A stretch of 64,000 nt of DNA from an uncultured cyanobacterium (GCA_963718615.1 OY970368.1:5984001-6048000), one strand, 5' to 3'. Shown: positions 3,261 through 54,433, numbered from the stretch's first letter. A program made the numbers and translations. The notes: generated by a model from the letters alone, not told the origin.

Positions 3261-3448
3261 TGTTTGTGCGGTGAGCTGAACAACCTTCCAAAGCAAGCCT
3301 CTCCTGTTTTCGTTGAATTGCTGGTACGAGTGAGGTTAATGAATCTCAAGCTGTGGGAAGTATAATAAGAGACCTGCTAAATTTCTCTATTTGGTGTCGT
3401 TCTCAATGGTTACATTAAGTTGCCTTACATTGCTGCGAGGGAACAAGA

Positions 3449-4383: not shown

Positions 4384-4445
4384 CAGCATGTCTCAACAAA
4401 ATTATCTTGGTTTATCAACTCAATCTAATTGCGAGTAACCACATA

Positions 4446-4874: not shown

Positions 4875-4889
4875 TTTTACCTTTATTTT

Positions 4890-7999: not shown

Positions 8000-9337
8000 A
8001 TGAGAAGCTTGTTAATGCGTAGTCCAATTGCGATCGCTCTCTTTTGGATCGGCACCTACTTACTGGTTACCCTTCTCCCTCTCTTTATTTTGTTGATCTA
8101 TCCACCGCCAAACGCGCGAGGATTTTGGATAGAGTTTTCAGTTGCGCTGGGGTTTATCGGGTTGGCTATGATGGCCTTACAGTTTGTCTTAACGGCCCGC
8201 ATCAATCGAATCGAAGCGTCGTATGGCATCGACATTCTGCTGCAATTCCACCGTTTTACATCCCTAGTGGCGTTTTTTATGGTGTTGCTGCATCCGGTCA
8301 TGCTGTTTATCGTTCAGCCAGAAACCAGGCAGCTTTTGAATTTTCCCGCAGCCCCCTGGCGAGCAAGGCTGGCCATTTTAGGAACATTGGCCTTCATCAC
8401 CTTAGTGGTCACCACCATTTGGCGCAAGCCCTTGCGCATTCCCTACGAGCCTTGGCGTACATCTCATACGATCTTGTCAGTCTTGGCCGTGGGGCTAGGA
8501 CTGGGACATGCCCTGGGGGTTAGCTACTATCTAGCATTGTTTTGGAAAAAAATGATATGGGCAGGCATAGCCCTCATCGCCCTGTGGCTGGTGGTTTACG
8601 TGCGGATTATCAAACCCTGGATGATGACCCGCAAGCCCTATCTGGTAGAAGCCGTCACGCCACAGCGAGGCAACGTTTGGACGCTGGCCTTGCGCCCCTG
8701 GGGCCACAATGGGTTTTGCTTCCAGCCCGGTCAATTCTCTTGGCTCACGTTGGATATCACGCCCTTGAGTATGCGAGAGCATCCCTTTTCGATGTCCTCT
8801 AATGCGGATCATGCGGGTCGCGTTGAGTTTGGCATTAAGGCATTAGGAGACTTTACCGGCACTATCAAAGACATCAAACCCGGAACGAAAGCCTATTTAG
8901 ATGGCCCCTATGGTGTATTTACGATCGATCGCTATGAAGATTCAGCTGGATTTGTGCTAATTGCAGGTGGCGTTGGCATCACACCGATGATGAGTATGAT
9001 AGCAACCGCAGCCGAGCGAAAAGACGACCGTCCTTACTTGTTGATTTACGCTAGCAAAACCTGGGATGAAATTACCTTTCGTGAAGAGCTAGATGTCCTT
9101 AAGGCACAGCTAGATTTGGAGATTGTGTATGTTTTGAGAGAGCCGCCAGAGCATTGGTCGGGTGAAGAGGGATACGTTGATCAGCAGCTTTTGGCTCGCC
9201 ACATTCCAAAGCATCAGGCAACCCGGCATTATTTTATTTGTGCCGCCCCGGCGATGATGACGCAAGCGGAACGCGCTCTGCACGACTTAGGTGTACCCGT
9301 CACGCAAGTTCATATGGAACACTTTAATCTAGCCTAA
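8000..9337 (+). CDS. Ferric-reductase-like transmembrane oxidoreductase (FAD/NAD(P)H-binding)
   Basis: N-terminal TM domain with His residues, HPFS FAD motif, DGPYG, LIAGGVGITP, C-terminal EHF. Confidence 0.85.
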   Translation: MRSLLMRSPIAIALFWIGTYLLVTLLPLFILLIYPPPNARGFWIEFSVALGFIGLAMMALQFVLTARINRIEASYGIDILLQFHRFTSLVAFFMVLLHPVMLFIVQPETRQLLNFPAAPWRARLAILGTLAFITLVVTTIWRKPLRIPYEPWRTSHTILSVLAVGLGLGHALGVSYYLALFWKKMIWAGIALIALWLVVYVRIIKPWMMTRKPYLVEAVTPQRGNVWTLALRPWGHNGFCFQPGQFSWLTLDITPLSMREHPFSMSSNADHAGRVEFGIKALGDFTGTIKDIKPGTKAYLDGPYGVFTIDRYEDSAGFVLIAGGVGITPMMSMIATAAERKDDRPYLLIYASKTWDEITFREELDVLKAQLDLEIVYVLREPPEHWSGEEGYVDQQLLARHIPKHQATRHYFICAAPAMMTQAERALHDLGVPVTQVHMEHFNLA

Positions 9338-9466
9338 ATCAACCGTTAGCTTCTGACTCACTTGTTCTTGTTGTCTGGTTGTCAAAGTCTTGCTGTTAGA
9401 ATTCAATCTTAAAATCCCAATCTTAAAATCTCGACCTTAAAATCTCAATCATAAAGGTTTCTGATT

Positions 9467-9646
9467 ATGCGATACAGCATCATGCTCCAACTCGTCGGGC
9501 TGATGACGCTAGTGCTACTGACTACTGCGGCACTTTTTGCCTGGTTACAAAATCGCTCTGTACCAAGTCCAAATGTGGATTCACACAGACGTAGCTCATT
9601 ACGAAGTGACGCTTTTCGGGCGATCGATCTCCTTAAAGACGTCTAG
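9467..9646 (+). CDS. Small membrane protein (59 aa)
   Basis: ATG 9467 to TAG 9646, MRYSIMLQLVGLMTLVLLTTAALFAWLQN...; below the ORF-track cutoff. Confidence 0.45.
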   Translation: MRYSIMLQLVGLMTLVLLTTAALFAWLQNRSVPSPNVDSHRRSSLRSDAFRAIDLLKDV

Positions 9647-9700
9647 GATTGTTGCGCCTGTCACTAGCGACAGACGTTGAGCGGCTAGCGCTCCTCTACT

Positions 9701-39074: not shown

Positions 39075-42000
39075 ATGCCCACGCGGATTTGGAAGTTTTT
39101 GACCACCGACATTAAGGGCCTCGTTGCAGGAGAGACAGGCTCCGTTGGCCTTGAAGCGGCGAATGGGGTATTACGGTTAGCAGCGAAGCTTCAAAGCGAA
39201 GGCCCCCAGTCCCAGGAGTTGGGACCCATGGTAGGGCAGATCACGTCACTATTAGATATTTTTAACTTACCCCTGGGGAAATTTATTTCCGTTCATTTGC
39301 CCTATGAGGCGATCGCCGGGGATTTGCTCCAGTTCTACCGCGACAAAACCCAAAAAGAGCCCAGCCTCGGCCATTGTGTCTGTCTGATCAGCCAAGCTGC
39401 CTACCTCGAAAGCATCACCACGCTACTGGGCAGTCCCAAACTTCGCCCTTGGATTCAGCAAGTTGGTCAAGAGCCCGTTTCGCCTCGGGTGGCGGAGGGG
39501 CTGCACCAGTTGGGCAAGCTGATTCTGTCTGAAGAAGATGTACGGATTGCCATTATTGATTTTGGCAACTGTCGGTTGGCGCGGGCTTTTACCCAATTAT
39601 TTTTGACAAGATTGACGCAATTGGGGCTGAAGGCAGATTCGGCTCGGGCGATCGCCCAGCGGGCCACCCAGCTCACCGAGCAGCGCATGCGGGCTCCCCT
39701 CAAAAACTCCGGGGAGCGGGTGCAGCGGTTGATCGAGTGGTATCGCATTGGGGGACGGGCGGCGCTGCGCACCTACCTCAGCATCGATGCCTATTTGCAT
39801 GAGATGATCCGTCCGATGGGTGACGAAAATCCCGAGAGCTTTTCGATTCAGGAACTGTATGTGCCCCCCCAGGCCCAGCTTCTGGCTCGGGATGGCAAGC
39901 CGCGATCGGAGCAGATGACGCTGTCCTTGCAGCAATGGGTTCAAGATTGGCTCGACAATCCCCGGCGGCTGGAGCAAGTTCTCTTTATTGAAGGCGAGGC
40001 GGGACGAGGCAAAACCACGTTTTGCCAAATGTTTGCCGATTGGGCCAGAATTCACCTGCATCCTAACTGGACGCCGATCTTGGTCCAGGTTCGTGATGTG
40101 CCGCCCCCTGGAAAACCATTGGAAAGCTGGCGATTTGACGATTGGCTCAGTCAGGCGATCGGTCGTGATTTTACCCAAGATGATCCCAACTGGTTAGCTG
40201 CTGCCAATGTTCGATTTTTGTTCATTATAGATGGTGTGGATACCCTGGGGCTCAGCCAGCAGCCGGGGGCGACGCTGGAGCAATTTTTGGAGCAGGTCGG
40301 CCAATTTCAGAAAAACTGTGCCAGTTATTTGGAGCGAGAGCATCGGGTTTTGTTGACGGGGCGATCGCTCTCCCTGCTCGATCGTCAGCTCAGTGTTCCG
40401 GACAATATTGAGCGGCTGGAAATCCTGCCCATGGACGATGCCTTACAACGGGGGTGGCTGCAGCAACTGGCCAAGCGGGCGGGGTTTCGTCCGGAGCAAC
40501 TGAAGGAGTTTTTGACTGATCCACTCCTGCCCCAAAGCATCCGCGACCTTAGCCAAGAGCCACTGTTTTTGGGATTTTTGGCGGCGATGTTTTATGGGGG
40601 CGTCTTGGACGCCAGCAGTTTTGAAGCGGTGAGTGAGGCGGGGGCCAAGGTTAAGTTTTTTACACAACTGATGGATTGGGTGATTGCCCAATCGGAAATT
40701 TCGCCTCTGGGTCTGACACCGGAGCAGCTACGGCTGATGTTGCGGGAGGCGGGGTTGTGTAGCGTTCAGCTCGGGACCGAGACGGTGCCGCTGCGGGTCA
40801 TTGAAAAGCGATTGGCCGGGGGCGATGATGGCGCGATGCCGGAAATTTCAACCCTAGAGACTGAACCTGAGGAACTCTCTGCACCGTTGCCGGGGACACT
40901 GGTGATTCGACCGGCGATGATGCCCCTGCCCATCGCCACGATTCAGGCCGATCTCAAGACGCAGCATGTGGCGGCACTGACCCTCAGCCATCGCAGCTTT
41001 AGCCAGTTTCTCTTCGCTGAACAACTCTGCATTGGCCTGGAACAATGGTCGAGGTTGCGAAATCCCGGCACTGAAACGGCGGATGTGGATTGGGAAATTT
41101 ATGATCTCTTGGGCTACGGCGGTTTGACCCAGGAGATTGTCCAGGGTTTATTGGTGTTGCTCGATCGCAGCCCCACGTTTGAACCGGAAGCGCTGTTCCA
41201 TCGACTTCAGGATTTTTATTTGCGGTGGGCGAATGGCAGCATTATTGATGAACATCCACCGACCTTGCCCCAGCGTAAGATGCAGCAATTGCGCCGTCAA
41301 CAGCAGTACCGAGAGCAACCCTTAGGACAGCGGCAGGTGGATGCCTATACGGGGTTTAATGTGATGGTGTTGCTGCTAGAACTCAATCGCTATGGGCGGG
41401 TGCGAGACGAACTCAAACAAAAGATCATTTTTTATCCCACAGGACGAGCCACCAAGGCTCCGGAACGATTACTGAATATTATTCAGTATGGCCAATGTGT
41501 TGGGCCTCAATCCTTTGGGCGTATTGTGGGTCCATTTCTGAGTGGTGTTCACCTCAGCGGAGCCAATCTCAGCGGGACGGATTTGCGAGGCGTTAATCTG
41601 AGTGGTGCGGACCTGAGCGGTACCAATCTCAGCGGGACGGATTTACGGCAAGCGGATTTGCGCGGTGCGGATTTGAGTGGGGCCAATCTGAGTGGGGCCA
41701 ATCTCGATGGGGCCAATCTGCGGCGGGTATCCCTCAGTCGGGCCATGCTTGCCGGTGCAACCTTAATTCGGGCATTGCTGAGCAATGCGGATATGATTGG
41801 TGCCCTGTTCCATGGTGCGGATTTGAGCGGTGCGGATTTGAGTTTGGCAGATTTGAGTTTGGCAGATTTGCGAGGTGCGGTTTTGAATCAGGCGGATTTG
41901 AGCTTAGCGGATTTGCGCAGTGCCAGTCTCAACTGTGCGTCGCTCCAAAAGGCATTACTCAACCGAGCCTCGTTTAACAGTGCGGATCTTCGCTGTGCAG

Positions 42001-42284
42001 AACTTTGTGGGGCAAATTTGAGCTTGGCGGATCTGAGCCAAGCCAACTTGAGCTTGGCGGATCTGAGCCAAGCCAACTTGAGCTTGGCGGATCTGAGTCA
42101 AGCCAACCTTACGAGTGCAGTTGTGCGAGGAACTGATTTAAGCGGGGCGGACTTAACGCGGGCGCAATTGCAATCAATTGTCTCCGATGAACATACCCAG
42201 TGGGAAGGGGTGCGGGGGGTGGAGCGATCGCTCCTGATCGCCGACGATTGGTTAGCGGATTCCAATCTTCCCCTGCTGAGCTAG
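39075..42284 (+). CDS. NACHT-domain NTPase with C-terminal pentapeptide repeats
   Basis: Walker A GEAGRGKTTF, Walker B FIIDGVD, LLTGR; long A(D/N)LSxA pentapeptide array. Confidence 0.9.
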   Translation: MPTRIWKFLTTDIKGLVAGETGSVGLEAANGVLRLAAKLQSEGPQSQELGPMVGQITSLLDIFNLPLGKFISVHLPYEAIAGDLLQFYRDKTQKEPSLGHCVCLISQAAYLESITTLLGSPKLRPWIQQVGQEPVSPRVAEGLHQLGKLILSEEDVRIAIIDFGNCRLARAFTQLFLTRLTQLGLKADSARAIAQRATQLTEQRMRAPLKNSGERVQRLIEWYRIGGRAALRTYLSIDAYLHEMIRPMGDENPESFSIQELYVPPQAQLLARDGKPRSEQMTLSLQQWVQDWLDNPRRLEQVLFIEGEAGRGKTTFCQMFADWARIHLHPNWTPILVQVRDVPPPGKPLESWRFDDWLSQAIGRDFTQDDPNWLAAANVRFLFIIDGVDTLGLSQQPGATLEQFLEQVGQFQKNCASYLEREHRVLLTGRSLSLLDRQLSVPDNIERLEILPMDDALQRGWLQQLAKRAGFRPEQLKEFLTDPLLPQSIRDLSQEPLFLGFLAAMFYGGVLDASSFEAVSEAGAKVKFFTQLMDWVIAQSEISPLGLTPEQLRLMLREAGLCSVQLGTETVPLRVIEKRLAGGDDGAMPEISTLETEPEELSAPLPGTLVIRPAMMPLPIATIQADLKTQHVAALTLSHRSFSQFLFAEQLCIGLEQWSRLRNPGTETADVDWEIYDLLGYGGLTQEIVQGLLVLLDRSPTFEPEALFHRLQDFYLRWANGSIIDEHPPTLPQRKMQQLRRQQQYREQPLGQRQVDAYTGFNVMVLLLELNRYGRVRDELKQKIIFYPTGRATKAPERLLNIIQYGQCVGPQSFGRIVGPFLSGVHLSGANLSGTDLRGVNLSGADLSGTNLSGTDLRQADLRGADLSGANLSGANLDGANLRRVSLSRAMLAGATLIRALLSNADMIGALFHGADLSGADLSLADLSLADLRGAVLNQADLSLADLRSASLNCASLQKALLNRASFNSADLRCAELCGANLSLADLSQANLSLADLSQANLSLADLSQANLTSAVVRGTDLSGADLTRAQLQSIVSDEHTQWEGVRGVERSLLIADDWLADSNLPLLS

Positions 42285-44305: not shown

Positions 44306-45049
44306 TTAGGGGTGCAGTTGCTGTTCGACCACGTTGGGGCTAACGCCGATGATTTGACCGTCTACGACGATCCACGTGAAGAAATCGACGTGTTCTCCAT
44401 AGTCGCCACCTGTCTTGCCCATGATGCCGATGGGCTCACCTTGGGCAATGTGCTGACCGGGTTCGACGGAGAAGCTTTCGGCATGGGCATAGGCTCCGTA
44501 GAGGGGATAGTCCTGGCCTTGAAATCGAACAGTGATGTCGAAGTCGATATGGCAGCGGTTGCCGTAGCCTGGTTCCTGCTGAACTGCATAGACTGTTCCA
44601 GGCCAGGAGGTGCGGATAGCCTTGGGATGGGCGAATGGATCGCCGTTTTGAGCATTTTTGACCACATAATCAATGCCCTTGTTGTAATGCCCTGCATGCA
44701 AGACCTTGGGCTGGTCTGAATCGGCTAGCAGTGCGAGAGTTTTGTGGTTTTTCCAGCCATGGCCTTCTGGCTCAAACGCGCCTCCGGTTTGGATGATTTC
44801 ACCCAAGATTTTAGACTTGAAGGTCGGATAACCTTTATATCGCCAGAGCTGTTCTTCGGAGAACTTTTCTCCTTTGGGGAGAATGGGCTGCAGTTTGGAT
44901 TCGGCGGGTGGGGTGGGAGGCACCTGGATGGTGGATGGGGGTGGAGGGTCGTTGGGCTTGAGGAGCAATGCGCCGCAGAGGAGGGGAGAGACCAAAAGCA
45001 GAAGGACTTTGACCCAGCGTTGAGAATTTTTGGTGATTTGTTTGTTCAC
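44306..45049 (-). CDS. M23 family peptidase
   Basis: Signal/TM, Pro linker, HYNKGIDY, GYGN, YAH...VEPGQHIAQGEPIGIMGKTG...EHVDF. Confidence 0.75.
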   Translation of the reverse strand: MNKQITKNSQRWVKVLLLLVSPLLCGALLLKPNDPPPPSTIQVPPTPPAESKLQPILPKGEKFSEEQLWRYKGYPTFKSKILGEIIQTGGAFEPEGHGWKNHKTLALLADSDQPKVLHAGHYNKGIDYVVKNAQNGDPFAHPKAIRTSWPGTVYAVQQEPGYGNRCHIDFDITVRFQGQDYPLYGAYAHAESFSVEPGQHIAQGEPIGIMGKTGGDYGEHVDFFTWIVVDGQIIGVSPNVVEQQLHP

Positions 45050-45204
45050 GGGGGAACTCTCCAGACAGATATTTCTAACTGTTTTATTTCCTGGAGCCGA
45101 AAGTCTGTGTGAATCATTGGCATTGGCAGCAAAAGTTTTTTCTTCAGTGCCGGAAAGCCAGTCCTAGAGACAATTGAGAGCGAAGAAACTAAAATGGGCC
45201 GGGT

Positions 45205-45243
45205 CTGTCAATAATTTGCAGGGCCGACTGTCAATAATTGACA
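45205..45243. promoter_or_regulatory. Candidate operator: CTGTCAATAAT direct repeat plus TGTCAAT-A-ATTGACA palindrome
   Basis: Copies at 45205-45215 and 45228-45238; inverted repeat at 45229-45243, in the divergent intergenic region. Confidence 0.4.
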
Positions 45244-46383
45244 AAATTTGCGGAGCAGTGGGAACGGGTGAACGAAAAGCAATGCCGACTAACGTCGAGG
45301 GGGATGCAGGATCTTAAATCGCTGATCTCAGGTGTTTTTCTCAAAAAGCCCACGCACATAGAGATGGGAGTTTTGTGTGGTGTGAATCGAAACACTATAA
45401 GTCTGATTCGGCGGGAATGCCCTCAGGCTCACCATGCTCAGATTTTTGAGAGGATTTTTAACGCACTCAACGCGAACCTTAGAGAGGATTATTCGGGCAA
45501 GCCTTGTCCCTTTGATATTGAAAAGCACTGTGAGGAATTCCAGGATGTTTCAGGGCGATCGCCCCAAACCCCCCCTGCAAGCACTTCTGTAACCCTGAAT
45601 CCAGAGCAGCAAATTGCGGATCTGTTGTGGGAGTTGGATTGTGTTGCCCAAAAGGCTTGTTTTGACGAACGTTGGGTGGGGTGCGATCGCGCCGCCATCA
45701 TCTCCATCCGCGCCAAGGGCATCGATACCCAAAAATGGCTGGTAAAACGCTTTGCCAGAAAGGTCCCTAGGTTTTCAACAGCACGACCCTTCCCTATCGA
45801 AGTGCGTTCCCATGATATGCGGTGGAATTTTGAGGCATTCTGGGAGGAACTGGCGAGACCGCTGGAAATCGCAGCGGAGCCGGAGGATGTTATCCAAAGG
45901 CTCTGTGATTGTTACCAAACCCAGTCAGTGGTGATTGCGCTGTATGGCTTGGACGGTGGGAAACGTTTTGCCAAGGAGCGACAGCAGGTGATGGAGGAGT
46001 TTTGGCAGCCGCTTTATGAAAAAGTTTGTGCATTGCCGCGATCGCCCAGCTCCCGCCTCGTCCTCTTTTTAACAGGAGAGGTAGCCCAATCTGACGATGT
46101 AGCGGAGAATTTGACTGATGAGCCCCTGAGTTCGGTATACTCCCTACGCCTGCCAGATTTGGCAACTATCAGCCAGCGGGACGTTGAGCTGTGGTTAACC
46201 CAAGATGATGTTTACAACGCGCTTTGTGGCCTTCGCCAAAACTTGGATTTTGATACCCTTCTCAGGGATGATCTACCCAACTGGACAGATTACCCTGGGG
46301 AGGTTTTTCAAGAGATTCGATCGCTGTTTGACAATTTGGATTTCAATTTGGATTTACGGAGTCACTGGGAGCTAGCCGGGTAA
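45238..46383 (+). CDS. Inactive STAND (iSTAND)-like protein with putative N-terminal HTH
   Basis: LCGVNRNTISLIR HTH-like segment; LDCVAQ...QKWLVKR...EFWQPL...LVLFL degenerate P-loop pattern; abuts moxR; start uncertain. Confidence 0.65.
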   Translation: MTKFAEQWERVNEKQCRLTSRGMQDLKSLISGVFLKKPTHIEMGVLCGVNRNTISLIRRECPQAHHAQIFERIFNALNANLREDYSGKPCPFDIEKHCEEFQDVSGRSPQTPPASTSVTLNPEQQIADLLWELDCVAQKACFDERWVGCDRAAIISIRAKGIDTQKWLVKRFARKVPRFSTARPFPIEVRSHDMRWNFEAFWEELARPLEIAAEPEDVIQRLCDCYQTQSVVIALYGLDGGKRFAKERQQVMEEFWQPLYEKVCALPRSPSSRLVLFLTGEVAQSDDVAENLTDEPLSSVYSLRLPDLATISQRDVELWLTQDDVYNALCGLRQNLDFDTLLRDDLPNWTDYPGEVFQEIRSLFDNLDFNLDLRSHWELAG

Positions 46384-47436
46384 ATGAGTACAGAATCTGA
46401 GCGTACAAAATTTGACTACAGCTACAGCGGCACAATCCAGCCTCCCCAGAACGGTACGAAAGACTCGGTAGGCCGGACTTACCATCCCTACATCCCCAGC
46501 GATGACCTGCGGGAGGTGGTGAACCTGGCGCTCAAGCTTCAGCGTCCGCTGTTGCTGGAGGGGGATCCGGGGTGTGGGAAGACGAAATTGGCGGGGGCGA
46601 TCGCCTACGAACTCACCCAAAGATACCTCGCTGGCAAAACAGACAAAGACAGCAACCCCCTCTGGTGGCCCTACTACATCTGGAACGTCAAATCCGTTAG
46701 CCAAGCCCAAGACGGTCTGTATCGCTATGATGCGGTGGCTCGGTTGCGGGATGCTCAGCTCGTGGGTTCCGATCCGCAGCGGTTGGCGGGGTATTTGGGG
46801 GAAGAGGAAAGCAAAAAGCTGATCGATCGCCTCAAGGACCGCAGGCGCTACCGAGAGTTTGGCCCCCTGGGCAAAGCCCTACGGCATCGGGATCAGCGAC
46901 CAATTTTGCTGATCGACGAAATCGACAAAGCCGACAGCGACTTTCCCAACGATCTCTTGCTGGAACTGGACGAACTGCGGTTTGAGATTCCCCAAACGGG
47001 CGAGGAAATCCCCACGCCGGATCAGAAGCCGATTATTTTAATTACCAGCAACCGCGAGAAACCGCTGCCGGAGCCGTTTTTGCGGCGATGCCTCTATTTT
47101 TATGTGGATTTCCCCGACGAGGAGCGACTGCTCACCATCATTCAGCAGCGGTTTGGTGCGCCCAAGCGGGGACAGACGGCGGTAATCAAAGCAGCAGTGA
47201 AGCGGTTTTACGAGATTCGGGAGCTGCTGGCCGATGAGCCAGGAAGCCGGGAGCCGGGGACGAGTGAGTTTTTGGAGTTTTTGTCGGTGTTGTTGCAGAA
47301 GTCGAGCAAAGAGGCCCAGGAAGATCTAGAAAACCTAGCGGAGCGGTTGCCGTTGTTGGGGACGTTGCTCAAGAATCGGGCCGATCAACAAAGGTTCCAA
47401 GCGAGTGAGGGAAGGAAAAATAAGGAACAAAAATGA
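46384..47436 (+). CDS. MoxR family AAA+ ATPase
   Basis: PLLLEGDPGCGKT, YDAVARLRD, LLIDEIDKAD, ITSNREKPLPEPFLRRC. Confidence 0.93.
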   Translation: MSTESERTKFDYSYSGTIQPPQNGTKDSVGRTYHPYIPSDDLREVVNLALKLQRPLLLEGDPGCGKTKLAGAIAYELTQRYLAGKTDKDSNPLWWPYYIWNVKSVSQAQDGLYRYDAVARLRDAQLVGSDPQRLAGYLGEEESKKLIDRLKDRRRYREFGPLGKALRHRDQRPILLIDEIDKADSDFPNDLLLELDELRFEIPQTGEEIPTPDQKPIILITSNREKPLPEPFLRRCLYFYVDFPDEERLLTIIQQRFGAPKRGQTAVIKAAVKRFYEIRELLADEPGSREPGTSEFLEFLSVLLQKSSKEAQEDLENLAERLPLLGTLLKNRADQQRFQASEGRKNKEQK

Positions 47437-47469
47437 TGATTAATCTCCGGCAAAACCACAGGTTGATAC

Positions 47470-47643
47470 GTAGGTTGGCGTTGAGCGAAGCGAAACCCAA
47501 CAGCCATAGCCAAGATTGGGCTGGGGTTTCGGCTGGGGTTTCGACTGGGGTTTCGGCTGGGGTTTCGGCTGGGGTTTCGGCTGGGGTTTCGGCTGGGGTT
47601 TCGGCTGGGGTGATGTTGGGTTTCGTGCCTCAACCCAACCTAC
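47470..47643. repeat. REP doublet (REPIN) 1 with internal 12-bp tandem array (CTGGGGTTTCGG x7+)
   Basis: GTAGGTTGGCGTTGAGCGAAGCGAAACCCAAC 47470-47501; inverted arm 47615-47643 ending CCTAC; array 47521-47611. Confidence 0.9.
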
Positions 47644-47656
47644 GGTTGCATGACTT

Positions 47657-48736
47657 ATGGCAATAGACTCCGCCCCCTTTCTGGATTTGTTTTTGCGGCT
47701 GCGGGCTGCGGGGATGCCGCTGTCGCCGGAGCAGTATGACCTGTTGCGGCAGTCCTTGGACCAGGGCATTGGCCTCGGGGGCTGGGACGATTTGCAGCGA
47801 ATCTGCCGCTGCCTGTGGCTAAAGCAGCCGCCCCACAGCCCAGAAGCCAAAACCTTTGATCGGGTTTTCAACGAATACCGCCAACAATCCCTCCCAACCC
47901 CATCCCGTAGGGACGAACAGCCGTTCGTCCCACCCCCGCCACAGCCACAGCCTCCACCAATCCCACAGCCCACCCCCTGGCCACCCCCCATCCCCCCGCG
48001 CAAAAAAACGCCGGATTCCCAAGCCCAGCCAGACCCAAAAGCCCATGAAAAAGCTCCGGTCGCGGTACGGGCCGAGGCAAAACCTGAGGCAATGTCCAAT
48101 CTGCATCCATTTCGGCTGGAGCCAAGGGATCTACCCGTTTCCCTGGAGCAGGTGCAAATGAGCTGGCGCATGTTGCGGCGTCCGGTGGCGGAGGGGCCAG
48201 CGCGGGAGTTGGATTTGGAGGCGACCCTTCGACGAATTGGCAGCGAGGGCCTGTTTGGCGATGTGGTCTTGCGTCCGGTGCGGCGACGGCGGGCGGAGCT
48301 GTTGCTGCTGGTGGATGAGGCCGGGGCGATGGTGCCATTTCGGCCTGCCTTGGGGCCGCTGCGGCGGGCCATGCAGGAAAGGCGGGTTTCCCCTGGGGTG
48401 GAATATCGCTTTACGGCCTATCCCGAGGAGTATGTTTATGACCCGCAAAACCGAGGACAGGCGCTGCCGCTGCGGCAGGTGGTGTCTCGGTTGCACGAAA
48501 AGCGGACAGTGGTGATGATCTGGAGTGATGGGGGCGCGGCGACAAGGCGCTATAGCGAGGAACGGGTGCGGCAAACCATCGCGTTTTTGGGTCGGCTGTT
48601 GCCCTGTGTGCGCCAGGTGATTTGGCTGAATCCGTTGCCGAGGGAGCGCTGGGCAGAAAGTTCTGCCGCTGCCATTGACCAATATTTAGCCGCCACCCCA
48701 ACCGGCCAAATGATTCCGTTTTCCGAGTTCAAATGA
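47657..48736 (+). CDS. vWA-domain (CoxE-like) partner of MoxR
   Basis: LFLRLRAAGMPLSPEQY, Pro linker, ELDLEATL, LLLVDEAGAMVPF, IWSDGGAA, IWLNPLPRERW. Confidence 0.85.
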   Translation: MAIDSAPFLDLFLRLRAAGMPLSPEQYDLLRQSLDQGIGLGGWDDLQRICRCLWLKQPPHSPEAKTFDRVFNEYRQQSLPTPSRRDEQPFVPPPPQPQPPPIPQPTPWPPPIPPRKKTPDSQAQPDPKAHEKAPVAVRAEAKPEAMSNLHPFRLEPRDLPVSLEQVQMSWRMLRRPVAEGPARELDLEATLRRIGSEGLFGDVVLRPVRRRRAELLLLVDEAGAMVPFRPALGPLRRAMQERRVSPGVEYRFTAYPEEYVYDPQNRGQALPLRQVVSRLHEKRTVVMIWSDGGAATRRYSEERVRQTIAFLGRLLPCVRQVIWLNPLPRERWAESSAAAIDQYLAATPTGQMIPFSEFK

Positions 48737-48760
48737 CCCATCGAACATAACCCGCCAAAT

Positions 48761-50341
48761 ATGACCAGCCGGACCAGCCAACAAATCCAAGCCTTTGAAC
48801 GGCGCTATGGGACAGCGACGCTGGATTTGGCCTGCCATGGAGCGTTTCCGCTGACGCTGACGACGGAGTTGCTCTATTGTTTGCGGGAGCAGTTTAATTT
48901 GGATTGCGACTGGTATGGGGCGGCGGATGTGTTGCTGTCGGGGTTGTGTCGGTCGGTGGGGCACGACCTGTATGAGATGGATGGCCCTTTGCGCAATGCG
49001 CTGTTGTGGCGGCTGGCGCAGCGGCTGGAGCAGCGGTTTCCGGAGCGTTTGGAAGAGTTAGAAGCATTCATGGTGGCCTATATTCGCCATCGTTTGCAGG
49101 TGGAGGAAAATCGGCGGGCGCTGGTGCTGGGGGATCCGGAGCGGATGCACTGGACGGCGTTGGCCTGTTTGCGGTCTGAGGAAGCGATCGAAGCGATTCG
49201 TCAGGATTTGCAGCGGCTGACGGCGGCGGATGTGAACCCGGAGGAGCGGTTTCGGTTGGCGGCGTTGGTGGAGAGTTATGGGGATTTTTTGGCGGAGCAG
49301 GATTATCGACCTGTGCTGCTGGACTGGGCAGAGAAGCTGGCGGAGGGGGAGCCGATTGATGGGCGGGCGGCGGCAGTAGCGACGGCGGCAGCAGCGGCAG
49401 CGCGGGCGGGGTTTCCGGCGTTGAAGACGTTGGAGTTTGAGCTGGCGGAGATGGTGTTGGGCGAGGATGGGCCGGATTTGCCGATTGAGCAGTTGGGAAA
49501 ATTTCGGTTTGAGACAGTGACAGTGGATCGGCGGGGACGGATCAAGAAGCGGGAGGAGAAGGAGGCGTTTTATTTTGTGGAGCCTTTGGGGGAGGCGGGG
49601 CCGTTTTTGGAGATGGTGGCGGTGCAGGGCGGCAGGTTCATGATGGGATCGCCAAAAGATGAGCCGGGACGGTGGGATTCTGAGGGGCCGCAGCATGAGG
49701 TGGTGGTACCGAGTTTTTTTATGGGGCGGTATCCGGTGACCCAGGCACAGTGGCAGGCGATTGCCCAAACCTCGAAGGTGAAGCACGATCTGGAACTAAA
49801 CCCATCTCACTTCAAAGGGAAAGACCGTCCCGTGGAGCGGGCGTATTGGCAGGATGCGGTGGAATTTTGTGCGCGGCTGAGCCGGGAAACGGGGCGGGAA
49901 TATCGCTTGCCGAGCGAGGCGGAGTGGGAATATGCCTGCCGAGCGGGGACGACGACGCCGTTTCATTTTGGGGAGATGATTACCCCTGGGCTGGCGAACT
50001 ACAACGTTAGCTCTGCCTATAACAAGGGGCCAAAGGGTCAATATCGAAAAGAAACGACCCCGGTGGGAAGTTTTCCGGCCAATGGGTTTGGGCTCTGTGA
50101 CATGCATGGGAATGTCTGGGAATGGTGTGCAGATCACTGGCATGAGAACTATGAGGGAGCACCGACAGATGGAAGTGCTTGGCTAGAAAAAGACTCTAAG
50201 TTGCATGTACAACGCGGCGGCTTCTGGAAACGTCGTCCCAAGAGTTGCCGCTCCGCGTCCCGCTACTTCAGCCACTTTCTCGCGCCCCGCCACTTCAGTT
50301 TCGGTTTTCGAGTGATGTGTGTTTTGCCGAGGACTCCCTAG
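48761..50341 (+). CDS. FGE-sulfatase (CLec-fold) domain protein; putative DGR target 1
   Basis: [45 protein letters not shown]...CRSASR...GFRV. Confidence 0.92.
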   Translation: MTSRTSQQIQAFERRYGTATLDLACHGAFPLTLTTELLYCLREQFNLDCDWYGAADVLLSGLCRSVGHDLYEMDGPLRNALLWRLAQRLEQRFPERLEELEAFMVAYIRHRLQVEENRRALVLGDPERMHWTALACLRSEEAIEAIRQDLQRLTAADVNPEERFRLAALVESYGDFLAEQDYRPVLLDWAEKLAEGEPIDGRAAAVATAAAAAARAGFPALKTLEFELAEMVLGEDGPDLPIEQLGKFRFETVTVDRRGRIKKREEKEAFYFVEPLGEAGPFLEMVAVQGGRFMMGSPKDEPGRWDSEGPQHEVVVPSFFMGRYPVTQAQWQAIAQTSKVKHDLELNPSHFKGKDRPVERAYWQDAVEFCARLSRETGREYRLPSEAEWEYACRAGTTTPFHFGEMITPGLANYNVSSAYNKGPKGQYRKETTPVGSFPANGFGLCDMHGNVWEWCADHWHENYEGAPTDGSAWLEKDSKLHVQRGGFWKRRPKSCRSASRYFSHFLAPRHFSFGFRVMCVLPRTP

Positions 50342-50401
50342 CCCTCTGCTCTTTTGCCCTCTTGCCCTTTGGGCTGTTGGGTTGCTTCGCGCGGAGCGCG
50401 A
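50207..50401 (+). other. Putative DGR variable region + IMH-like tract + hairpin (target 1)
   Basis: Differs from the target 2 copy mainly at codon positions 1-2; 70-nt tract 50301-50370 identical to 52899-52968; TCGCGC-GGA-GCGCGA hairpin at 50387-50401. Confidence 0.75.
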
Positions 50402-50488
50402 TCAAAATTTTTGGGGGTTTGGGGTGTTCGGTGGGGGTGATTCCTCTCGGTGGAACGGCAGGTGATCGAAAATGTCGCGGCGGAGACG

Positions 50489-51067
50489 GTAGGTTGGCGT
50501 TGAACGAACGTGAAACCCAACATGCTCCAACCATGGCTTTGCCCGTTATCCACCAACCATGGCTTTGCCCGTTATCCACCAACCATGGCTTTGCCCGTTA
50601 TCCACCAACCATGGCTTTGCCCGTTATCCACCAACCATGGCTTTGCCCGTTATCCACCAACCATGGCTTTGCCCGTTATCCACCAACCATGGCTTTGCCC
50701 GTTATCCACCAACCATGGCTTTGCCCGTTATCCACCAACCATGGCTTTGCCCGTTATCCACCAACCATAGCTTTGCCCGTTATCCACCAACCATGGCTTT
50801 GCCCGTTATCCACCAACCATGGCTTTGCCCGTTATCCACCAACCATGGCTTTGCCCGTTATCCACCAACCATGGCTTTGCCCGTTATCCACCAACCATGG
50901 CTTTGCCCGTTATCCACCAACCACGGCTTTGCCCGTTATCCACCAACCATGGCTTTGCCCGTTATCCACCAACCATGGCTTTGCCCGTTATCCACCAACC
51001 ACGGCTTTGCCCGTTATCCACCAACCATGGCTTTGCCCGTTGGGTTTCGTGCCTCAACCCAACCTAC
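50489..51067. repeat. REPIN 2 with internal 26-bp tandem array (CCAACCATGGCTTTGCCCGTTATCCA x19 + partial)
   Basis: Left REP 50489-50521, array 50527-51041, right REP 51039-51067; three single-base variant units. Confidence 0.95.
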
Positions 51068-51089
51068 GGGTAATTGTTTTGGCCCAATT

Positions 51090-51234
51090 GTAGGTTGGTG
51101 TTGGACGAACGTGAAACCCAACAGCCTGAGGGAGGGCGATCGCAAAGGATCATGGATGACTCAATCATGATTTTCGTACGGGCGATTTCCCCCTTGCTTA
51201 AGCTTGTTGGGTTTCGTGCCTCAACCCAACCTAC
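51090..51234. repeat. REPIN 3 (unique, non-amplified spacer)
   Basis: GTAG arm 51090-51122; inverted arm 51206-51234. Confidence 0.9.
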
Positions 51235-51270
51235 GAGGGTTGATGTGTGGGTTAATTCATTATGATTTTC

Positions 51271-51813
51271 CTAGGGACGATCGCCTATGGGTGGCTCGAA
51301 ATGATGCGCAGGGGCAGCCCAACTGTGAGGATAATACCCTTGGTTGACATAGCGATGAAAACTAGAATAAGGCCAATCTTTAGGAGCCTTGACCCATCCA
51401 TGTTTGACCGGATTGTAATGAATGTAGTCTAGGTGATTTGCCAGATCCAATTCATCGCGAATACAATGCTCCCAAAAGCGCCGTTGCCATACATTTCGTT
51501 CTTGTTTACTCTGCCGAGACAGGGAAATCACTTCTGTAGACTCACGGGGATAATGGCGGCTGAAATGGCCTTTAATTAATCTCCAGCGAGTTGAAAAATT
51601 AGCATCACCCTCCGGTAACGTCCAAATGCAATGAAGATGATCAGGCAAAATGACAGCCGCATCAATGATGAAGGGATGCTTGGTGCGCACAGACCTAAAG
51701 GACTGACGGAGAATAGCAATATGCTCTGGATCTTGGAAAAGGGGGCGGCGATCGCTCGTTACCACCGTAAAAAAATAGGTTCCTCCAGAGACTTTGGCGC
51801 GACGGTATTGCAT
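51271..51813 (-). mobile_element. REP-associated tyrosine transposase (RAYT, IS200-like HUH)
   Basis: GGTYFFTVVT, VILPDHLHCIW (HUH), WQRRFWEH, YIHYNPVKHG, WPYSSF; flanked by GTAG REP doublets. Confidence 0.93.
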
Positions 51814-51867
51814 AAAGGCGATCGCAAAGGACTGCTCCTAAAATTCCCATTCAAAACCCCATAACCC

Positions 51868-52097
51868 GTAGGTTGGCGTTGAGCGTAGCGAAACCCAACG
51901 GTTTTGGGGGCGATCGCCGGGGTTGTTGGGTTTCATTATGGGGGTTTTTGGGGAGGGGCGATCGCAAGGGCTGTTGGGTTTCATTATGGGGGTTTTTGGG
52001 GAGGGGCGATCGCAAGGGCTGTTGGGTTTCATTATGGGGGTTTTTGGGGAGGGGCGATCGCAAGGGCTGTTGGGTTTCATTCTTCAACCCAACCTAC
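51868..52097. repeat. REPIN 4 with internal 48-bp tandem array (x3)
   Basis: Left REP 51868-51899; units start at 51925, 51973 and 52021; right REP 52069-52097 shares its first 13 nt with each unit. Confidence 0.92.
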
Positions 52098-52135
52098 AAT
52101 TGAGCTGTTGGTTTTTGTTTTTGGGGATCATCATC

Positions 52136-52939
52136 ATGGCGGAACTGACGATCAAACGCAGCATCAGAACGGCCCAATATTTCACCGAAGACTTAGGAAA
52201 CGGGGTTGGACTGGATATGGTGCTAATTCCCGGTGGAACCTTCCTGATGGGCTCCCCAGAAGACGAGCCAGAACGGTGGGACGATGAAGGTCCGCAGCAT
52301 GAGGTGACGGTGCCGAGCTTTTTCATGGGACGCTACCCGGTGACCCAAGCCCAATGGACAGCAATTGCCCAGAAGCGGAAGAGCAACCGCAAACTGGAAC
52401 TGGATCCATCAGGTTTCAAAGGGGCAGATCGCCCGGTCGAAAACATTGAGTGGGACGACGCCATGGAGTTTTGCGCTCGATTAAGCCGAGAGACGGGACG
52501 GGAATATCGTTTGCCGAGCGAAGCGGAATGGGAGTACGCCTGCCGAGCGGGGACGACAACACCGTTTCATTTTGGCGAAATGATCACGACCGAGCTAGCT
52601 AATTACAACGGTAGTGGCTACAACGGTGGCCCCGAAGGAGAATCTCGACAGGAGACAACCCCAGTGGGTAGCTTCCCAGCCAATGGATTTGGGCTCTGTG
52701 ACATGCATGGGAATGTCTGGGAATGGTGTGCAGATAACTGGCATAAAAACTATGAGAGAGCACCGGCGGATGGAAATGCTTGGTTAGACAAAGACTCTGG
52801 AATGTATGTACAACGCGGCGGCTCTTGGTTCTTCGCTCCCAGGATTTGCCGCTCCGCGTCCCGCGACGACTTCAGTCTCGCGCTCCGCAACAACGGTCTC
52901 GGTTTTCGAGTGATGTGTGTTTTGCCGAGGACTCCCTAG
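52136..52939 (+). CDS. Stand-alone FGE-sulfatase domain protein; putative DGR target 2
   Basis: ATG 52136 (MAELTIK); same FGE motifs as target 1 and identical C-terminus [12 protein letters not shown]. Confidence 0.9.
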
Positions 52940-52998
52940 CCCTCTGCTCTTTTGCCCTCTTGCCCTTTTGGCTGCTGGCTGTTTCGCGCGCAGCGCGA
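52808..52998 (+). other. Putative DGR variable region + IMH-like tract + hairpin (target 2)
   Basis: Retains AAC AAC codons; shared 70-nt tract; TCGCGC-GCA-GCGCGA hairpin at 52984-52998. Confidence 0.75.
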
Positions 52999-53850
52999 TC
53001 AAATTTTCTGCCCCCCCAACACCCCATACACAATCGTCTTTTCCCGAAACCCCTGCTGCATCAACCGCACCGCAAACGCCCCCCGAACCGTCATCCAACC
53101 ACTCGTCAACACCCCCAAAATCGCCTGGGGACTCAGCGCCGACTCCAACACCACATCCCAAAACGGGGCCACCGCCTCCGACCAATCCGCCGTTTGCAAA
53201 TTTTCCAGGGGTAAGGTCTTGGCCATACTGGCATAATCCCCCAAGGAAACCACAAAAGGCAGATGATACAACTCATAGATTTCCTGCAACAGCCTCGTCT
53301 CCGCCGTTGTCAGCGCCGGTGGGAGCTCCCGATGACACCAGGTCGCCACGATCAGTTTCCCCCCCGGCCTCAGCACCCGACAACATTCCGCCAAAAACTG
53401 CTGCTTATCCGGCATGTGCTCCCCACTTTCCAGCGACCACACCAGATCAAAACTGGCATCGGCAAACGGCATTTCCAAGGCATTCTCCACCTGAAAATTG
53501 ACCCGGTGGGCAATCCCCGCCTCCGCCGCCCTGGCGCGCGCCCGCTGAGCTTGGGTCGGGCTCAGCGTAATGCCTGTGCCATCGGCCCCAAAGCGGCGAG
53601 CCAAATAGAGCGTGCTGCCCCCAATGCCACAGCCCACATCCAAAATCTCTTGCGCCTCCGTCACCCCCGCCCAACGGAGCAACGCTTCAATTAGGTCAAT
53701 TTGGGCCTGCCGCCGCTCCTTCGGCTCCTGGCCATCCGGGCCATAGTAGCCATGGTGCATGTGCTCACCCCAAACCTGCTCCCAGAGCCCCGAAGAGGCA
53801 TCATAAAACGCTTGGATGCGGCGGTAGAGTGCAGTCGTCGTTGCGGTCAT
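52999..53850 (-). CDS. Gamma-tocopherol methyltransferase-like SAM-dependent methyltransferase
   Basis: FYDASSGLWEQVWGEHMHHGYY, LDVGCGIGGS, WSLESGEHMPDK. Confidence 0.88.
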   Translation of the reverse strand: MTATTTALYRRIQAFYDASSGLWEQVWGEHMHHGYYGPDGQEPKERRQAQIDLIEALLRWAGVTEAQEILDVGCGIGGSTLYLARRFGADGTGITLSPTQAQRARARAAEAGIAHRVNFQVENALEMPFADASFDLVWSLESGEHMPDKQQFLAECCRVLRPGGKLIVATWCHRELPPALTTAETRLLQEIYELYHLPFVVSLGDYASMAKTLPLENLQTADWSEAVAPFWDVVLESALSPQAILGVLTSGWMTVRGAFAVRLMQQGFREKTIVYGVLGGQKI

Positions 53851-53947
53851 TGAGAGCCCCTTTAGATTGCCATGTTGTCCAGTATGCGCTACATCTCATC
53901 ATGGAAGATCTATCCGATGACGCTTGAAAGCGGGAATTGTGAGCGTT

Positions 53948-54433
53948 ATGGAGTTTCATGGCAAAGTGATTTTGGGGATTGATCCGGCGATCGCCTCCAT
54001 CGGTTACGCCGCCATTTGCGATGCCACCGTGATCGACTACGGCGTGATCAAAACCCCCGCCTCAGCCAATCTGTACGATCGCCTCAAACAAATTCATCTG
54101 GATATCTGCGAACTCTGTACGATCGTCAAACCCGAAATCGTCGCCCTAGAAATGCCCTTCTTTAGCCGCGAAAACACCAACGCCAACAAGGTTTTGCGAG
54201 CGCTAGGGGTGATTCAAATGGCCCTAGGGGATTCTGGATTGCCGGATCCGATTTTTCTGCACCAATCCCAGGTGAAATCCGCCGTGGCTCAGTATGGAGC
54301 CGATAAGGGGGAAATTCAACTGGCGGTGGCATTTTTGTTTAATTTGTCGTCTCCGCCCAGACCGGACGATGCGGCGGATGCTTTGGCGATCGCCTACGCC
54401 GCCCAGATCGGAATGCGGGCGAATGTGCGATAG
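53948..54433 (+). CDS. ruvC: Holliday junction resolvase RuvC
   Basis: ILGIDP...GY, ALEMPFF, VK...K, PDDAADALAIA. Confidence 0.88.
   Translation: MEFHGKVILGIDPAIASIGYAAICDATVIDYGVIKTPASANLYDRLKQIHLDICELCTIVKPEIVALEMPFFSRENTNANKVLRALGVIQMALGDSGLPDPIFLHQSQVKSAVAQYGADKGEIQLAVAFLFNLSSPPRPDDAADALAIAYAAQIGMRANVR

Follow-up and report, generated by a model that had tools for sequence, protein, structure and literature searches.

Ternary conflict systems of the iSTAND MoxR-vWA type, with FGS/FGE effectors and linked DGRs, have been described before (Kaur, Burroughs, Iyer, Aravind 2020, PMC7159879); in the sections of that paper drawn on here, FGE/FGS is the commonest effector, it is fused C-terminally to the vWA protein, and a DGR accompanies many of the systems. 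In Thiohalocapsa PB-PSB1, MITE-like arrays replaced the reverse transcriptase (RT) or the template repeat (TR) at DGR loci (Dore et al. 2024, PMC10907252); as the cited part of that account has it, the repeat sequences correspond to IS-element ends, and the organism retains further DGRs that are still active. REPIN-RAYT systems are likewise known (Bertels and Rainey 2011, PMC3116915), and so is the REPtron, a RAYT flanked by its own REPs (Di Nocera et al. 2013, PMC3733652). Finally, TnpA-REP has been associated with the diversification of prochlorosins in picocyanobacteria (Laurenceau et al., bioRxiv 10.1101/2020.03.09.984088).

The locus studied here belongs to an uncultured cyanobacterium and lies within a 64-kb window (the whole stretch of DNA that was analysed, 64,000 nucleotides). 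Its genes were called with Pfam and NCBIfam profile searches against the family cut-offs, and its features are as follows.

45238..46383, plus strand: iSTAND component, 381 aa (PF19995, 40.9 bits, cut-off 24)
46384..47436, plus strand: MoxR-like AAA+ ATPase, 350 aa (AAA_5, 41.6 bits; also AAA)
47470..47643, no strand: REPIN1, inserted between moxR and vWA; spacer made of about 9 tandem copies of a 12-nt unit
47657..48736, plus strand: CoxE-type vWA protein, 359 aa (PF05762 VWA_CoxE, 39.3 bits, cut-off 26.4)
48761..50341, plus strand: FGE-1, 526 aa, an N-terminal half and a C-terminal FGE/C-type-lectin-fold domain (PF03781, E 3.9e-56)
50213..50341, plus strand: relic variable region VR1 (alignment to the template repeat of genome G007)
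50342..50413, plus strand: conserved 3' flank of VR1, an IMH-like GCCCTCT... stretch and a TCGCGC/GCGCGA hairpin
50489..51067, no strand: REPIN2; spacer made of about 20 tandem copies of a 26-nt unit
51090..51234, no strand: REPIN3; 83-nt unique spacer, flanks the RAYT stop codon
51271..51813, minus strand: RAYT (TnpA-REP), 180 aa, intact (NF047646, 219 bits, cut-off 80)
51868..52097, no strand: REPIN4; spacer made of 3 tandem copies of a 48-nt unit, on the start-codon side of the RAYT
52136..52939, plus strand: FGE-2, stand-alone FGE-domain protein, 267 aa (PF03781, E 4.3e-63)
52814..53010, plus strand: relic variable region VR2 with conserved 3' flank and hairpin (alignment, folding)

The order iSTAND, MoxR-like ATPase, REPIN1, CoxE-type vWA, FGE-1, REPIN2, REPIN3, RAYT (minus strand), REPIN4, FGE-2 agrees with the original prediction, as judged from Pfam, NCBIfam and REP mapping, and the REPIN coordinates likewise place the REP doublets at the gene and module boundaries, as had been proposed. 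The iSTAND family PF19995 has a single match in the whole genome, and orthologues of this gene occupy the equivalent position in other loci. Both the AAA_5 and the AAA match of the ATPase exceed their cut-offs, and the protein shares 53-67% identity with the ATPases of orthologous operons in alignment. A MoxR-specific model gave no match for it, and its assignment to the MoxR clade rests on context, including the position beside the vWA gene that is conserved in the orthologous loci, and on the cited sections of PMC7159879. Orthologues of the vWA protein show 35-56% identity and full-length orthologues of FGE-1, whose FGE-sulfatase domain comprises residues 284-518, show 45-57%. The ORF of FGE-2 spans 51923-52939 on the plus strand; as read from the sequence, translation likely starts at the in-frame ATG at 52136.

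The iSTAND component, the AAA+ ATPase, presumably of the MoxR clade, the CoxE-type vWA protein, the FGE domain and the cyanobacterial setting are all shared with the systems described in the cited sections of PMC7159879. The locus differs from them in that two distinct ORFs encode vWA (359 aa) and FGE-1 (526 aa), as is also the case in the orthologues, so that the FGE domain is present but unfused, and in that a DGR is absent from this genome. We consider it probable that the locus is a ternary conflict operon of the iSTAND MoxR-vWA type, of a cyanobacterial kind, and that its two FGE sensor genes were DGR targets.

Both FGE genes carry a DGR-type variable region (VR) at the 3' end. VR1 and VR2 mismatch at 20 of the 31 columns that hold an adenine in the G007 template repeat and at 5 of the remaining 85 columns, which is a relic adenine-specific signature. 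In G007 itself, which belongs to another genus, the template repeat differs from its own VRs at 12-13 of the 31 adenine columns and at none of the 85 others, in line with an active DGR in this relative. The 3' flanks of the two VRs are identical at 59 of 66 positions between FGE-1 and FGE-2, and at 53-56 of 68 positions compared with the VR flanks of G007; folding yields a hairpin with a 6-bp GC stem (-7.1 kcal/mol). In DGRs, the conserved sequence that follows the VR, with its GC-rich hairpin, serves target recognition, and the flank seen here is presumably such a site.

The corresponding machinery was searched for in the whole assembly, a single contig of 6.1 Mb (6,095,823 bases) that scored 100% complete; since it is a single contig, an unassembled plasmid, which would lie outside these searches, could carry an RT. 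Profile searches returned no RVT_1 and no bAvd (PF22296) match anywhere in the genome. When two orthologous DGR RTs and their Avds were compared with the genome by tblastn, nothing real was found even at E up to 10: the best E for the RTs was 0.46, and the Avds matched solely the antisense of VR/TR sequence. No third VR-like copy that could serve as a template repeat occurs within the 64-kb window, and among the 10 VR/TR-like elements of the genome the sole TR-like one (second locus L001, 10895-10983) is decayed. The two receptors had been described as hypervariable; the DGR-type VRs of both FGE genes are indeed there, but RVT_1, bAvd and a local template repeat are not, and the receptors are not hypervariable at present.

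Orthologous operons show where a DGR would be expected. Twelve loci were found with the vWA protein (L045-L056), and ten more are those among 80 MoxR-centred loci that contain vWA and FGE-1-like genes; the gene order is kept in all 22. In seven of these (L045, L046, L047, L055, L056, L187 and L189; tblastn) avd and the RT directly follow FGE-1, mostly between FGE-1 and FGE-2, and for L045 and L047 the bAvd and RVT_1 assignments were confirmed with Pfam. In orthologous loci, the stretch from RT/avd to FGE-2 contains TR-like segments. An Avd match alone, with no RT, was obtained for L053, and neither match was obtained for L051 (the contig of which stops about 0.9 kb past FGE-2), L052, L054 and eight of the ten MoxR-found loci; the contigs of L048-L050 end too early to show presence or absence. 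The slot of avd and RT in the orthologues is the slot of the RAYT and REPIN2-4 here. Together with the nearest orthologues, the VR signature suggests that an ancestor of this locus possessed a DGR.

The REP unit consists of GTAG and an 8-bp stem (GTTGGGTT/AACCCAAC) with a loop of 9-13 nt, and its predicted hairpin has -7.0 kcal/mol (z -3.8). In the operon the units form four inverted doublets with GTAG facing outward. Counted with a relaxed pattern over the 6,095,823 bases, the genome contains 55 units and 16 doublets, the common doublet form being 83-85 nt long with a spacer of 22-26 nt; several REPIN spacers have been expanded to tandem arrays that re-use half a REP. REPIN3 as a whole folds into a long hairpin (-31.6 kcal/mol, z -5.05). 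With REPIN1 inserted, the moxR-vWA gap measures 220 nt, compared with 7-58 nt in 11 of 12 orthologues and 138 nt in the other (distances between tblastn match ends). The claim that REPs occur nowhere else in the 64 kb holds, and neither are they spread evenly over the genome: eight of the 55 units and four of the 16 doublets fall within 4,628 bases of the operon, with 0.04 units expected (Poisson P 2e-16; 3e-13 after correction for windows), and none elsewhere in the window. REPs ordinarily cluster near their RAYT, and the concentration as such is a case of this.

The RAYT is the only protein of the genome above the NF047646 cut-off, a second, weak homologue scoring 66.7 bits. It aligns with E. 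coli TnpA-REP (PDB 4ER8) over residues 2-172 (E 3.5e-46), where its HUH stretch DHLHCIW matches EHMHCIW and DYIHYNPVKHGW matches DYIYINPVKHGW; the catalytic tyrosine is presumably among these aligned residues. REPIN3 ends 36 nt from its stop codon and REPIN4 begins 54 nt from its start codon. In three other genera, RAYT orthologues at 60-64% identity are accompanied by this REP family, those of G006 and G007 (50% identity) are flanked by a different REP, and for three others (L022-L024, 50-52%) a scan found no flanking REP of either kind. The RAYT and the GTAG REPs are thus a cognate pair. The RAYT may also mobilise the REPINs, with support that is indirect: from one genus to another the REP type changes with the RAYT, and right arms are identical in three of the four window doublets and in five other places of the genome. 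One RAYT above threshold, inverted GTAG hairpin doublets on its flanks, a REP family dispersed in the genome and cognate REPs beside orthologous RAYTs of other genera all resemble REPtrons and REPIN-RAYT systems as covered in the cited parts of PMC3116915 and PMC3733652. Against these, the present case differs in its small population, its spacers expanded to tandem arrays and the location of the REPtron inside a conflict operon.

A paralogous locus of the same genome, L001, contains three tandem stand-alone FGE genes, with a REP doublet and a singlet between the second and the third, in the order FGE-b, REPs, decayed TR, FGE-c. Here too the REPs occupy the expected place of avd and RT, adjoining the TR remnant, which mismatches the VRs at 11-13 of 20 adenine columns and 2-4 of 52 others. 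REP clusters of more than two units occur only twice in the 6.1 Mb, both times between tandem FGE genes at the expected avd-RT place. A REP cluster lies within 350 nt of three of the six VR/TR loci, compared with about 0.05 expected (three loci in 2 of 100,000 random placements, at least two in about 1 in 1,000), in a post hoc comparison with a crude null that counts the discovery locus among the three matches.

The genome lacks RT and bAvd and the avd-RT slot is filled by the RAYT and REPs; the locus therefore looks like a case of decay. We think it probable that the DGR core (avd, RT and template repeat) was lost and that its slot now holds the one bona fide REPtron of the genome, which would make it a decayed system and not a new diversifier. 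The ancestral core would have been located between FGE-1 and FGE-2, as in the orthologues. REPINs may first have landed in the non-coding VR flanks, as in G068, the one locus among the 22 with GTAG hairpins after the VRs, where REPINs stand alongside an intact DGR. The avd-RT-TR segment could then have been deleted or exchanged as REP copies recombined with one another or were processed in a RAYT-dependent way. At present the slot holds the RAYT flanked by its cognate GTAG REPINs, a neighbouring REPIN lies beside it, and a further one is inserted between moxR and vWA. The one large structural difference from the orthologous operons is the absence of avd-RT-TR between FGE-1 and FGE-2, and REP-associated deletion or replacement is plausible because this gap is bounded by REPINs and L001 is alike. 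As the nearest genome with the operon has only 56% identity in vWA, there is no close strain and hence no breakpoint was seen.

Two unrelated events, an ordinary deletion of the DGR core and later colonisation of, or drift into, a neutral spacer by the REPtron and REPINs, have some chance of explaining the same arrangement. REPs in general are found downstream of coding regions (PMC3733652, cited part), and adjacency of REPs and VRs is therefore to be expected more often. DGR-less states do exist without REPs, since among L051, L052 and L054, which lack Avd and RT matches, the gap between FGE-1 and FGE-2 measures 90-220 nt in L051 and L054 and contains no REPs. In other genomes only 2 of 130 loci of the REP family have an FGE gene, about background, and other mobile elements damage such loci as well: the MoxR-like gene of L001 is apparently split around an IS1 transposase. 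What speaks against independent events is that both large REP clusters coincide with the expected avd-RT place, that the L001 REP starts within the 3' half of the VR hairpin and adjoins the surviving TR remnant, and that in half of the VR/TR loci REPs are no more than 350 nt away.

According to the original prediction, the RAYT and REPINs could act as a recombination layer by which FGE cassettes are gained, exchanged or lost on top of DGR mutagenesis. REPINs do bracket FGE-2 and the RAYT and part the operon modules, REPs separate FGE genes in L001, and the prochlorosin case, as far as the cited part of the preprint goes, is analogous: there, too, a cyanobacterial gene family that diversifies adjoins a RAYT-family transposase, and a role in diversification by recombination was proposed. 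However, the prochlorosin association recurs across the phylogeny, whereas ours is limited to one genome among those searched, and the authors of that study, in a later note, report no strong evidence of causality and withdraw the causal claim (bioRxiv 10.1101/2020.03.09.984088). Among the 22 orthologous operons, and likewise among the 80 MoxR-centred loci, none has a RAYT, and conversely FGE, MoxR, vWA and iSTAND are absent from all eight RAYT-orthologue loci (about 9 kb on each side, shorter at contig ends); across these loci the RAYT has no conserved link with such operons. FGE-2 is not a REP-delivered cassette, because in six orthologues, all without RAYT, FGE-1 is likewise followed by a second, short gene with an FGE domain. 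Moreover, no DGR is left to act on top of, and no rearrangement variant was seen among metagenome contigs that are too short to show one. We see no support for a layer of cassette shuffling driven by the RAYT and regard it as unlikely. That the receptors are still diversified in trans, by a DGR RT and template on a replicon or prophage missing from the assembly, is very improbable: the VR flanks and hairpins are well conserved relative to another genus and a TR may lie elsewhere in a genome (Kaur et al., PMC7159879, cited sections), but the 6.1-Mb contig scored as complete has no RVT_1, bAvd or intact TR, and VR1 and VR2 differ at 5 of 85 non-adenine columns compared with none in the active G007 system.

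Decay of the DGR, then, is the reading we prefer, and replacement of DGR parts by MITE-like arrays has already been described for Thiohalocapsa PB-PSB1. The likeness extends, in the cited part of PMC10907252, to small palindromic mobile repeats in the place of RT or TR and to CLec sensors of MoxR-vWA systems. Here, by comparison, the host is a cyanobacterium with no RT left, and the replacing element is a REPtron, a RAYT with GTAG REPINs. The outcome would be two frozen receptors, the reading frames of which are intact.

The genome that holds the operon consists of a single contig of 6,095,823 bases. Five proteins are encoded on the plus strand within positions 45238-52939 of the window, and four REPINs (inverted doublets of REP hairpins) and a RAYT (TnpA-REP) gene on the minus strand lie among them:

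Features of the operon (window coordinates)
Within 45238-52939, plus strand: iSTAND protein (PF19995, 40.9 bits)
Within 45238-52939, plus strand: MoxR-like AAA+ ATPase (AAA_5, AAA)
47470-47643: REPIN1, inverted doublet, GTAG outermost
Within 45238-52939, plus strand: CoxE-type vWA protein (PF05762)
Within 45238-52939, plus strand: FGE-1, 526 aa, C-terminal FGE-sulfatase domain
50489-51067: REPIN2, inverted doublet, GTAG outermost
51090-51234: REPIN3, inverted doublet, GTAG outermost
51271-51813, minus strand: RAYT, intact, 180 aa (NCBIfam NF047646, 219 bits, cut-off 80)
51868-52097: REPIN4, inverted doublet, GTAG outermost
52136-52939, plus strand: FGE-2, short stand-alone FGE-domain protein, the ATG at 52136 being its probable start

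Scans for promoters and terminators over 45000-53200 gave sites no more numerous than in shuffled sequence. A further conflict-type STAND NTPase, an NNH3-NACHT-pentapeptide-repeat protein of 1069 aa, is encoded 3 kb upstream of the operon (39075-42284, plus strand). The cyanobacterial HIP1 octamer (GCGATCGC) is abundant in the window (89 copies in 64 kb, or 1.4 per kb, against 1.5 copies expected). It is absent across 46605-51135, a stretch of 4.5 kb that covers the 3' part of moxR, vWA and FGE-1 and in which GC rises to 0.58-0.61, and also inside FGE-2 (52136-52939); the RAYT gene and the spacers of the REPINs do have HIP1 sites. The core of the operon may have arrived comparatively recently. 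Elsewhere, at 10479-11446, nine HIP1 sites are spaced exactly 120 nt apart, which indicates a 120-nt tandem repeat of at least nine copies.

The 3' ends of FGE-1 and FGE-2 carry the trace of a diversity-generating retroelement (DGR), whose core comprises avd, a reverse transcriptase (RT) and a template repeat (TR). Compared along the template of the orthologous locus in genome G007, the two ends differ at 20 of 31 template-adenine columns, against only 5 of the 85 others. Past the stop codon the likeness continues for 66-68 nt, including a GC hairpin (59/66 identical between FGE-1 and FGE-2, and 53-56/68 identical to G007, a different genus). The active signature in G007 is of the same kind: its TR and its two variable regions (VRs) disagree at 12-13 of the 31 adenine columns and nowhere in the 85 others. 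The adenine-column differences, together with the conserved flank, indicate that FGE-1 and FGE-2 were once targets of one template repeat. In the whole genome neither RVT_1 nor bAvd gave a match, and tblastn with two orthologous RTs and Avds returned nothing beyond chance matches and hits to VR-like DNA in antisense. Judged from the sequence, the shared template repeat, avd and RT are gone from this genome and the two receptors are relics. The hypervariability ascribed to them in the original prediction is thus historical only, and an active DGR, the premise of a second diversification layer, is wrong for this genome. At 944474-944666 (minus strand) the genome also has an orphan VR/TR-like fragment; no FGE-domain match is anywhere near it, and the nearest REP is 42 kb away.

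Kaur et al. 2020 (PMC7159879) describe this type of operon and how it is linked to DGRs. We compared 22 orthologous operons, 12 from other cyanobacteria found through the vWA protein and 10 found by MoxR alignment, a search that reached mostly distant non-cyanobacterial MoxR loci. Their order is iSTAND, MoxR, vWA, a long FGE-1 and often a short FGE-2. In seven of the 22, bAvd and RT follow directly after FGE-1 (Pfam, tblastn), and in the closest orthologues (G007, G068, G136 and G193) both lie between FGE-1 and FGE-2, with the TR beside them in the alignment. One further locus has Avd without RT. Neither was matched in L051, L052 and L054 or in eight of the ten MoxR-found loci, and the contigs of L048-L050 stop too early to show presence or absence. 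In the G007 locus (L045, 2448-4230) avd and RT run opposite to the FGE genes, and the TR keeps the FGE orientation; in another orthologous locus, L047, all of these are co-oriented. The slot that holds avd, RT and TR in the four closest orthologues measures about 2.0-2.4 kb. Here it measures 1,794 nt and is almost entirely taken up by REPIN2, REPIN3, the RAYT and REPIN4. REPIN1 is a clean insertion in the moxR-vWA spacer, which measures 220 nt here; in 11 of 12 orthologues the match ends stand 7-58 nt from each other. It is well supported that the locus is an iSTAND ternary system of a known type linked to DGRs, that its own DGR has been lost, and that a REPtron, a RAYT flanked by its own REPs, stands in the DGR's place.

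In the REP unit, a hairpin, GTAG overlaps a stem of 8 bp (GTTGGGTT/AACCCAAC), and the loop is 9-13 nt long (-7.0 kcal/mol, z -3.8). With a relaxed pattern, the whole genome holds 55 units and 16 doublets. Eight of the units and four of the doublets fall within 4.6 kb at the locus, where 0.04 units are expected (P about 1e-13 after correction), and the rest of the 64-kb window has none. These counts and positions bear out the gene order and REP placement of the original prediction, with its four doublets and no REPs elsewhere in the 64 kb. Of the 16 doublets, 13 are located from 4.08 Mb onwards on the 6.10-Mb chromosome, in the third that also has the RAYT; the singlets are spread more evenly.

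The usual REPIN of this genome measures 83-85 nt, with a spacer of 22-26 nt. Three of the four local doublets have tandem arrays as spacers (12 nt about 9 times, 26 nt about 20 times and 48 nt 3 times), and two further genomic REPINs also have expanded spacers:

Expanded REPIN spacers
Window 47516-47623: 12-nt unit
Window 50527-51048: 26-nt unit
Window 51907-52081: 48-nt unit
Genome 4087157-4087326: 39-nt unit
Genome 4385192-4385439: 24-nt unit

The 5' half of the right-hand REP is reused in several array units: it is part of the 48-nt unit, and the 12-nt unit has a variant of it. Such reuse points to slippage at the hairpin or to rounds of partial processing there. Di Nocera et al. 2013 (PMC3733652) describe REPtrons, cyanobacterial GTAG REP families and REP dimers reiterated in tandem together with flanking DNA.

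The RAYT aligns with the E. coli TnpA-REP (PDB 4ER8; E 3.5e-46) over both the HUH stretch and the tyrosine-bearing stretch, and orthologues were found in 17 of 40 other genomes searched (E 0.001 or better). The REP family of the window also flanks RAYT orthologues of 60-64% identity; a different GTAG hairpin flanks the 50% identical orthologues of G006 and G007, and at three other RAYT loci (50-52% identity) the scan found no flanking REP. This pattern partly supports the view that RAYT and REP are cognate. The REP pattern of the window also occurs in genomes from several phyla (cyanobacteria, Thermodesulfobacteriota, Pseudoalteromonas, Poribacteria, Bradyrhizobium and Desulfatibacillum alkenivorans; loci L057-L136), so the REP-RAYT family is either widespread or transferred. 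The genome of the window has a second, divergent RAYT-like gene (L003, G000:C1:3268001-3281000, 9104-9673, minus strand), which reaches 66.7 bits with NF047646 where the cut-off is 80. Pepco and GTPase genes separate this gene from a caspase-FGE gene 2.1 kb away; inverted repeats were looked for at its flanks and none were found.

Only two REP clusters of more than two units exist in the genome, that of the window and that of L001, a paralogous VMAP-type system with caspase-EAD1, EAD1-VMAP-C and three tandem stand-alone FGE genes. The interval from FGE-b to FGE-c of L001 contains, in this order, a doublet and a singlet of REPs and a decayed template repeat, and the start of the REP falls in FGE-b's VR hairpin, inside the hairpin's 3' half. 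Over its first ~75 nt the TR remnant keeps the AAC-rich pattern; compared with the three VRs of L001, this part has mismatches in 11-13 of 20 adenine columns and in 2-4 of 52 others. A MoxR-like ATPase of L001 (G000:C1:5123001-5137000, 4262-6261) is apparently split into two ORFs around an IS1-family transposase ORF. At a third locus, L002 (caspase-FGE), a REPIN lies 313 nt from the VR. A REP cluster is thus found within 350 nt at three of the six VR/TR loci of the genome; random placement of the 36 clusters reached three in 2 of 100,000 trials and at least two in about 1 of 1,000, in a post hoc test that includes the discovery locus and uses a crude null. Other genomes, from many phyla, gave 130 loci with this REP family (80 of them with full flanks); an FGE gene is nearby in two, one a Trichodesmium DGR locus. 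This is about background, and a general association of REPs with FGE genes is therefore rejected as a rule.

From the position of the REPINs, from L001 and from an apparent intermediate in G068, we infer how the slot may have been refilled: REPINs would insert at the VR flanks, and REP-REP recombination or RAYT processing would then remove or exchange avd, RT and TR. The main rival is that the DGR was lost independently and the REPs later colonised neutral DNA. GTAG hairpins follow the VRs in one of the 22 orthologous loci, that of G068, where REPs of another GTAG family (GTAGGGTGCGTC...GACGCACC) stand in tandem 26-127 nt after both VR flanks beside an intact DGR:

REP copies in the G068 locus (L046, G068:C149)
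396-503: two tandem copies directly after a VR flank
3415-3538: three tandem copies directly after a VR flank

REPs can accordingly settle at VR flanks before any loss. Insertion followed by removal or exchange could be extended to a general proposal: that REPINs of this RAYT family prefer the hairpin-bearing 3' flanks of VRs and TRs, that REP-REP recombination or RAYT processing excises or exchanges avd-RT-TR, and that REPIN-RAYT systems are recurrent DGR erasers or cassette exchangers in conflict operons, twice in this genome and at an earlier stage in G068 (REPs after both VRs, DGR intact). We regard this general proposal as improbable.

A working layer of cassette shuffling by RAYT and REPs, as originally proposed, finds no comparative support: the RAYT is absent from all 12 vWA-found orthologous operons and from all 80 MoxR-centred loci. 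Nor is the RAYT tied to MoxR-vWA-FGE operons in the genomes searched, since FGE, MoxR, vWA and iSTAND homologues are missing from all eight RAYT-orthologue loci (~9 kb on each side, less at contig ends), which share no synteny with the window beyond generic pentapeptide repeats. For strain-level data, two metagenome runs (shares 0.10 and 0.08) were compared with 51069-54000 and gave short contigs. Run X1 contained a few near-identical contigs (0-2 differences over 80-201 nt), none of them spanning a junction. An X2 contig with a VR flank and then a REP 17 nt on was set aside, because its likeness of 85% with a 35-nt side makes it probably foreign.

The locus is a case of mobile repeats eroding a DGR, a kind of event already known. 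The closest precedent is Thiohalocapsa, where, as Dore et al. 2024 (PMC10907252) describe, MITE-like repeat arrays took the place of the RT or the TR within DGR loci and the variants coexist in populations. A diversifying role of TnpA-REP was proposed for prochlorosin genes and later qualified by its authors (bioRxiv 10.1101/2020.03.09.984088). Among the papers listed by literature searches that paired DGRs with RAYTs or with extragenic palindromes, none deals, to judge from title and abstract, with REPs or RAYTs at the loci of DGRs.

MoxR-vWA sensors that are diversified by DGRs have been proposed to be antigen receptors in multicellular bacteria, and REPIN-RAYT systems are usually regarded as harmless long-term residents. 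The locus illustrates a route from a diversifying to a frozen system, in which all protein genes are intact and the mutagenic core is lost, and it marks REPIN-RAYT systems as possible agents of such loss. For annotation it implies that a VR-like end on an FGE gene counts as evidence of hypervariability today only where an RT and a template repeat can also be found. The recurring picture of REPs beside VRs turns into a testable question, namely whether RAYT-mobilised REPINs target the flanks of DGRs.
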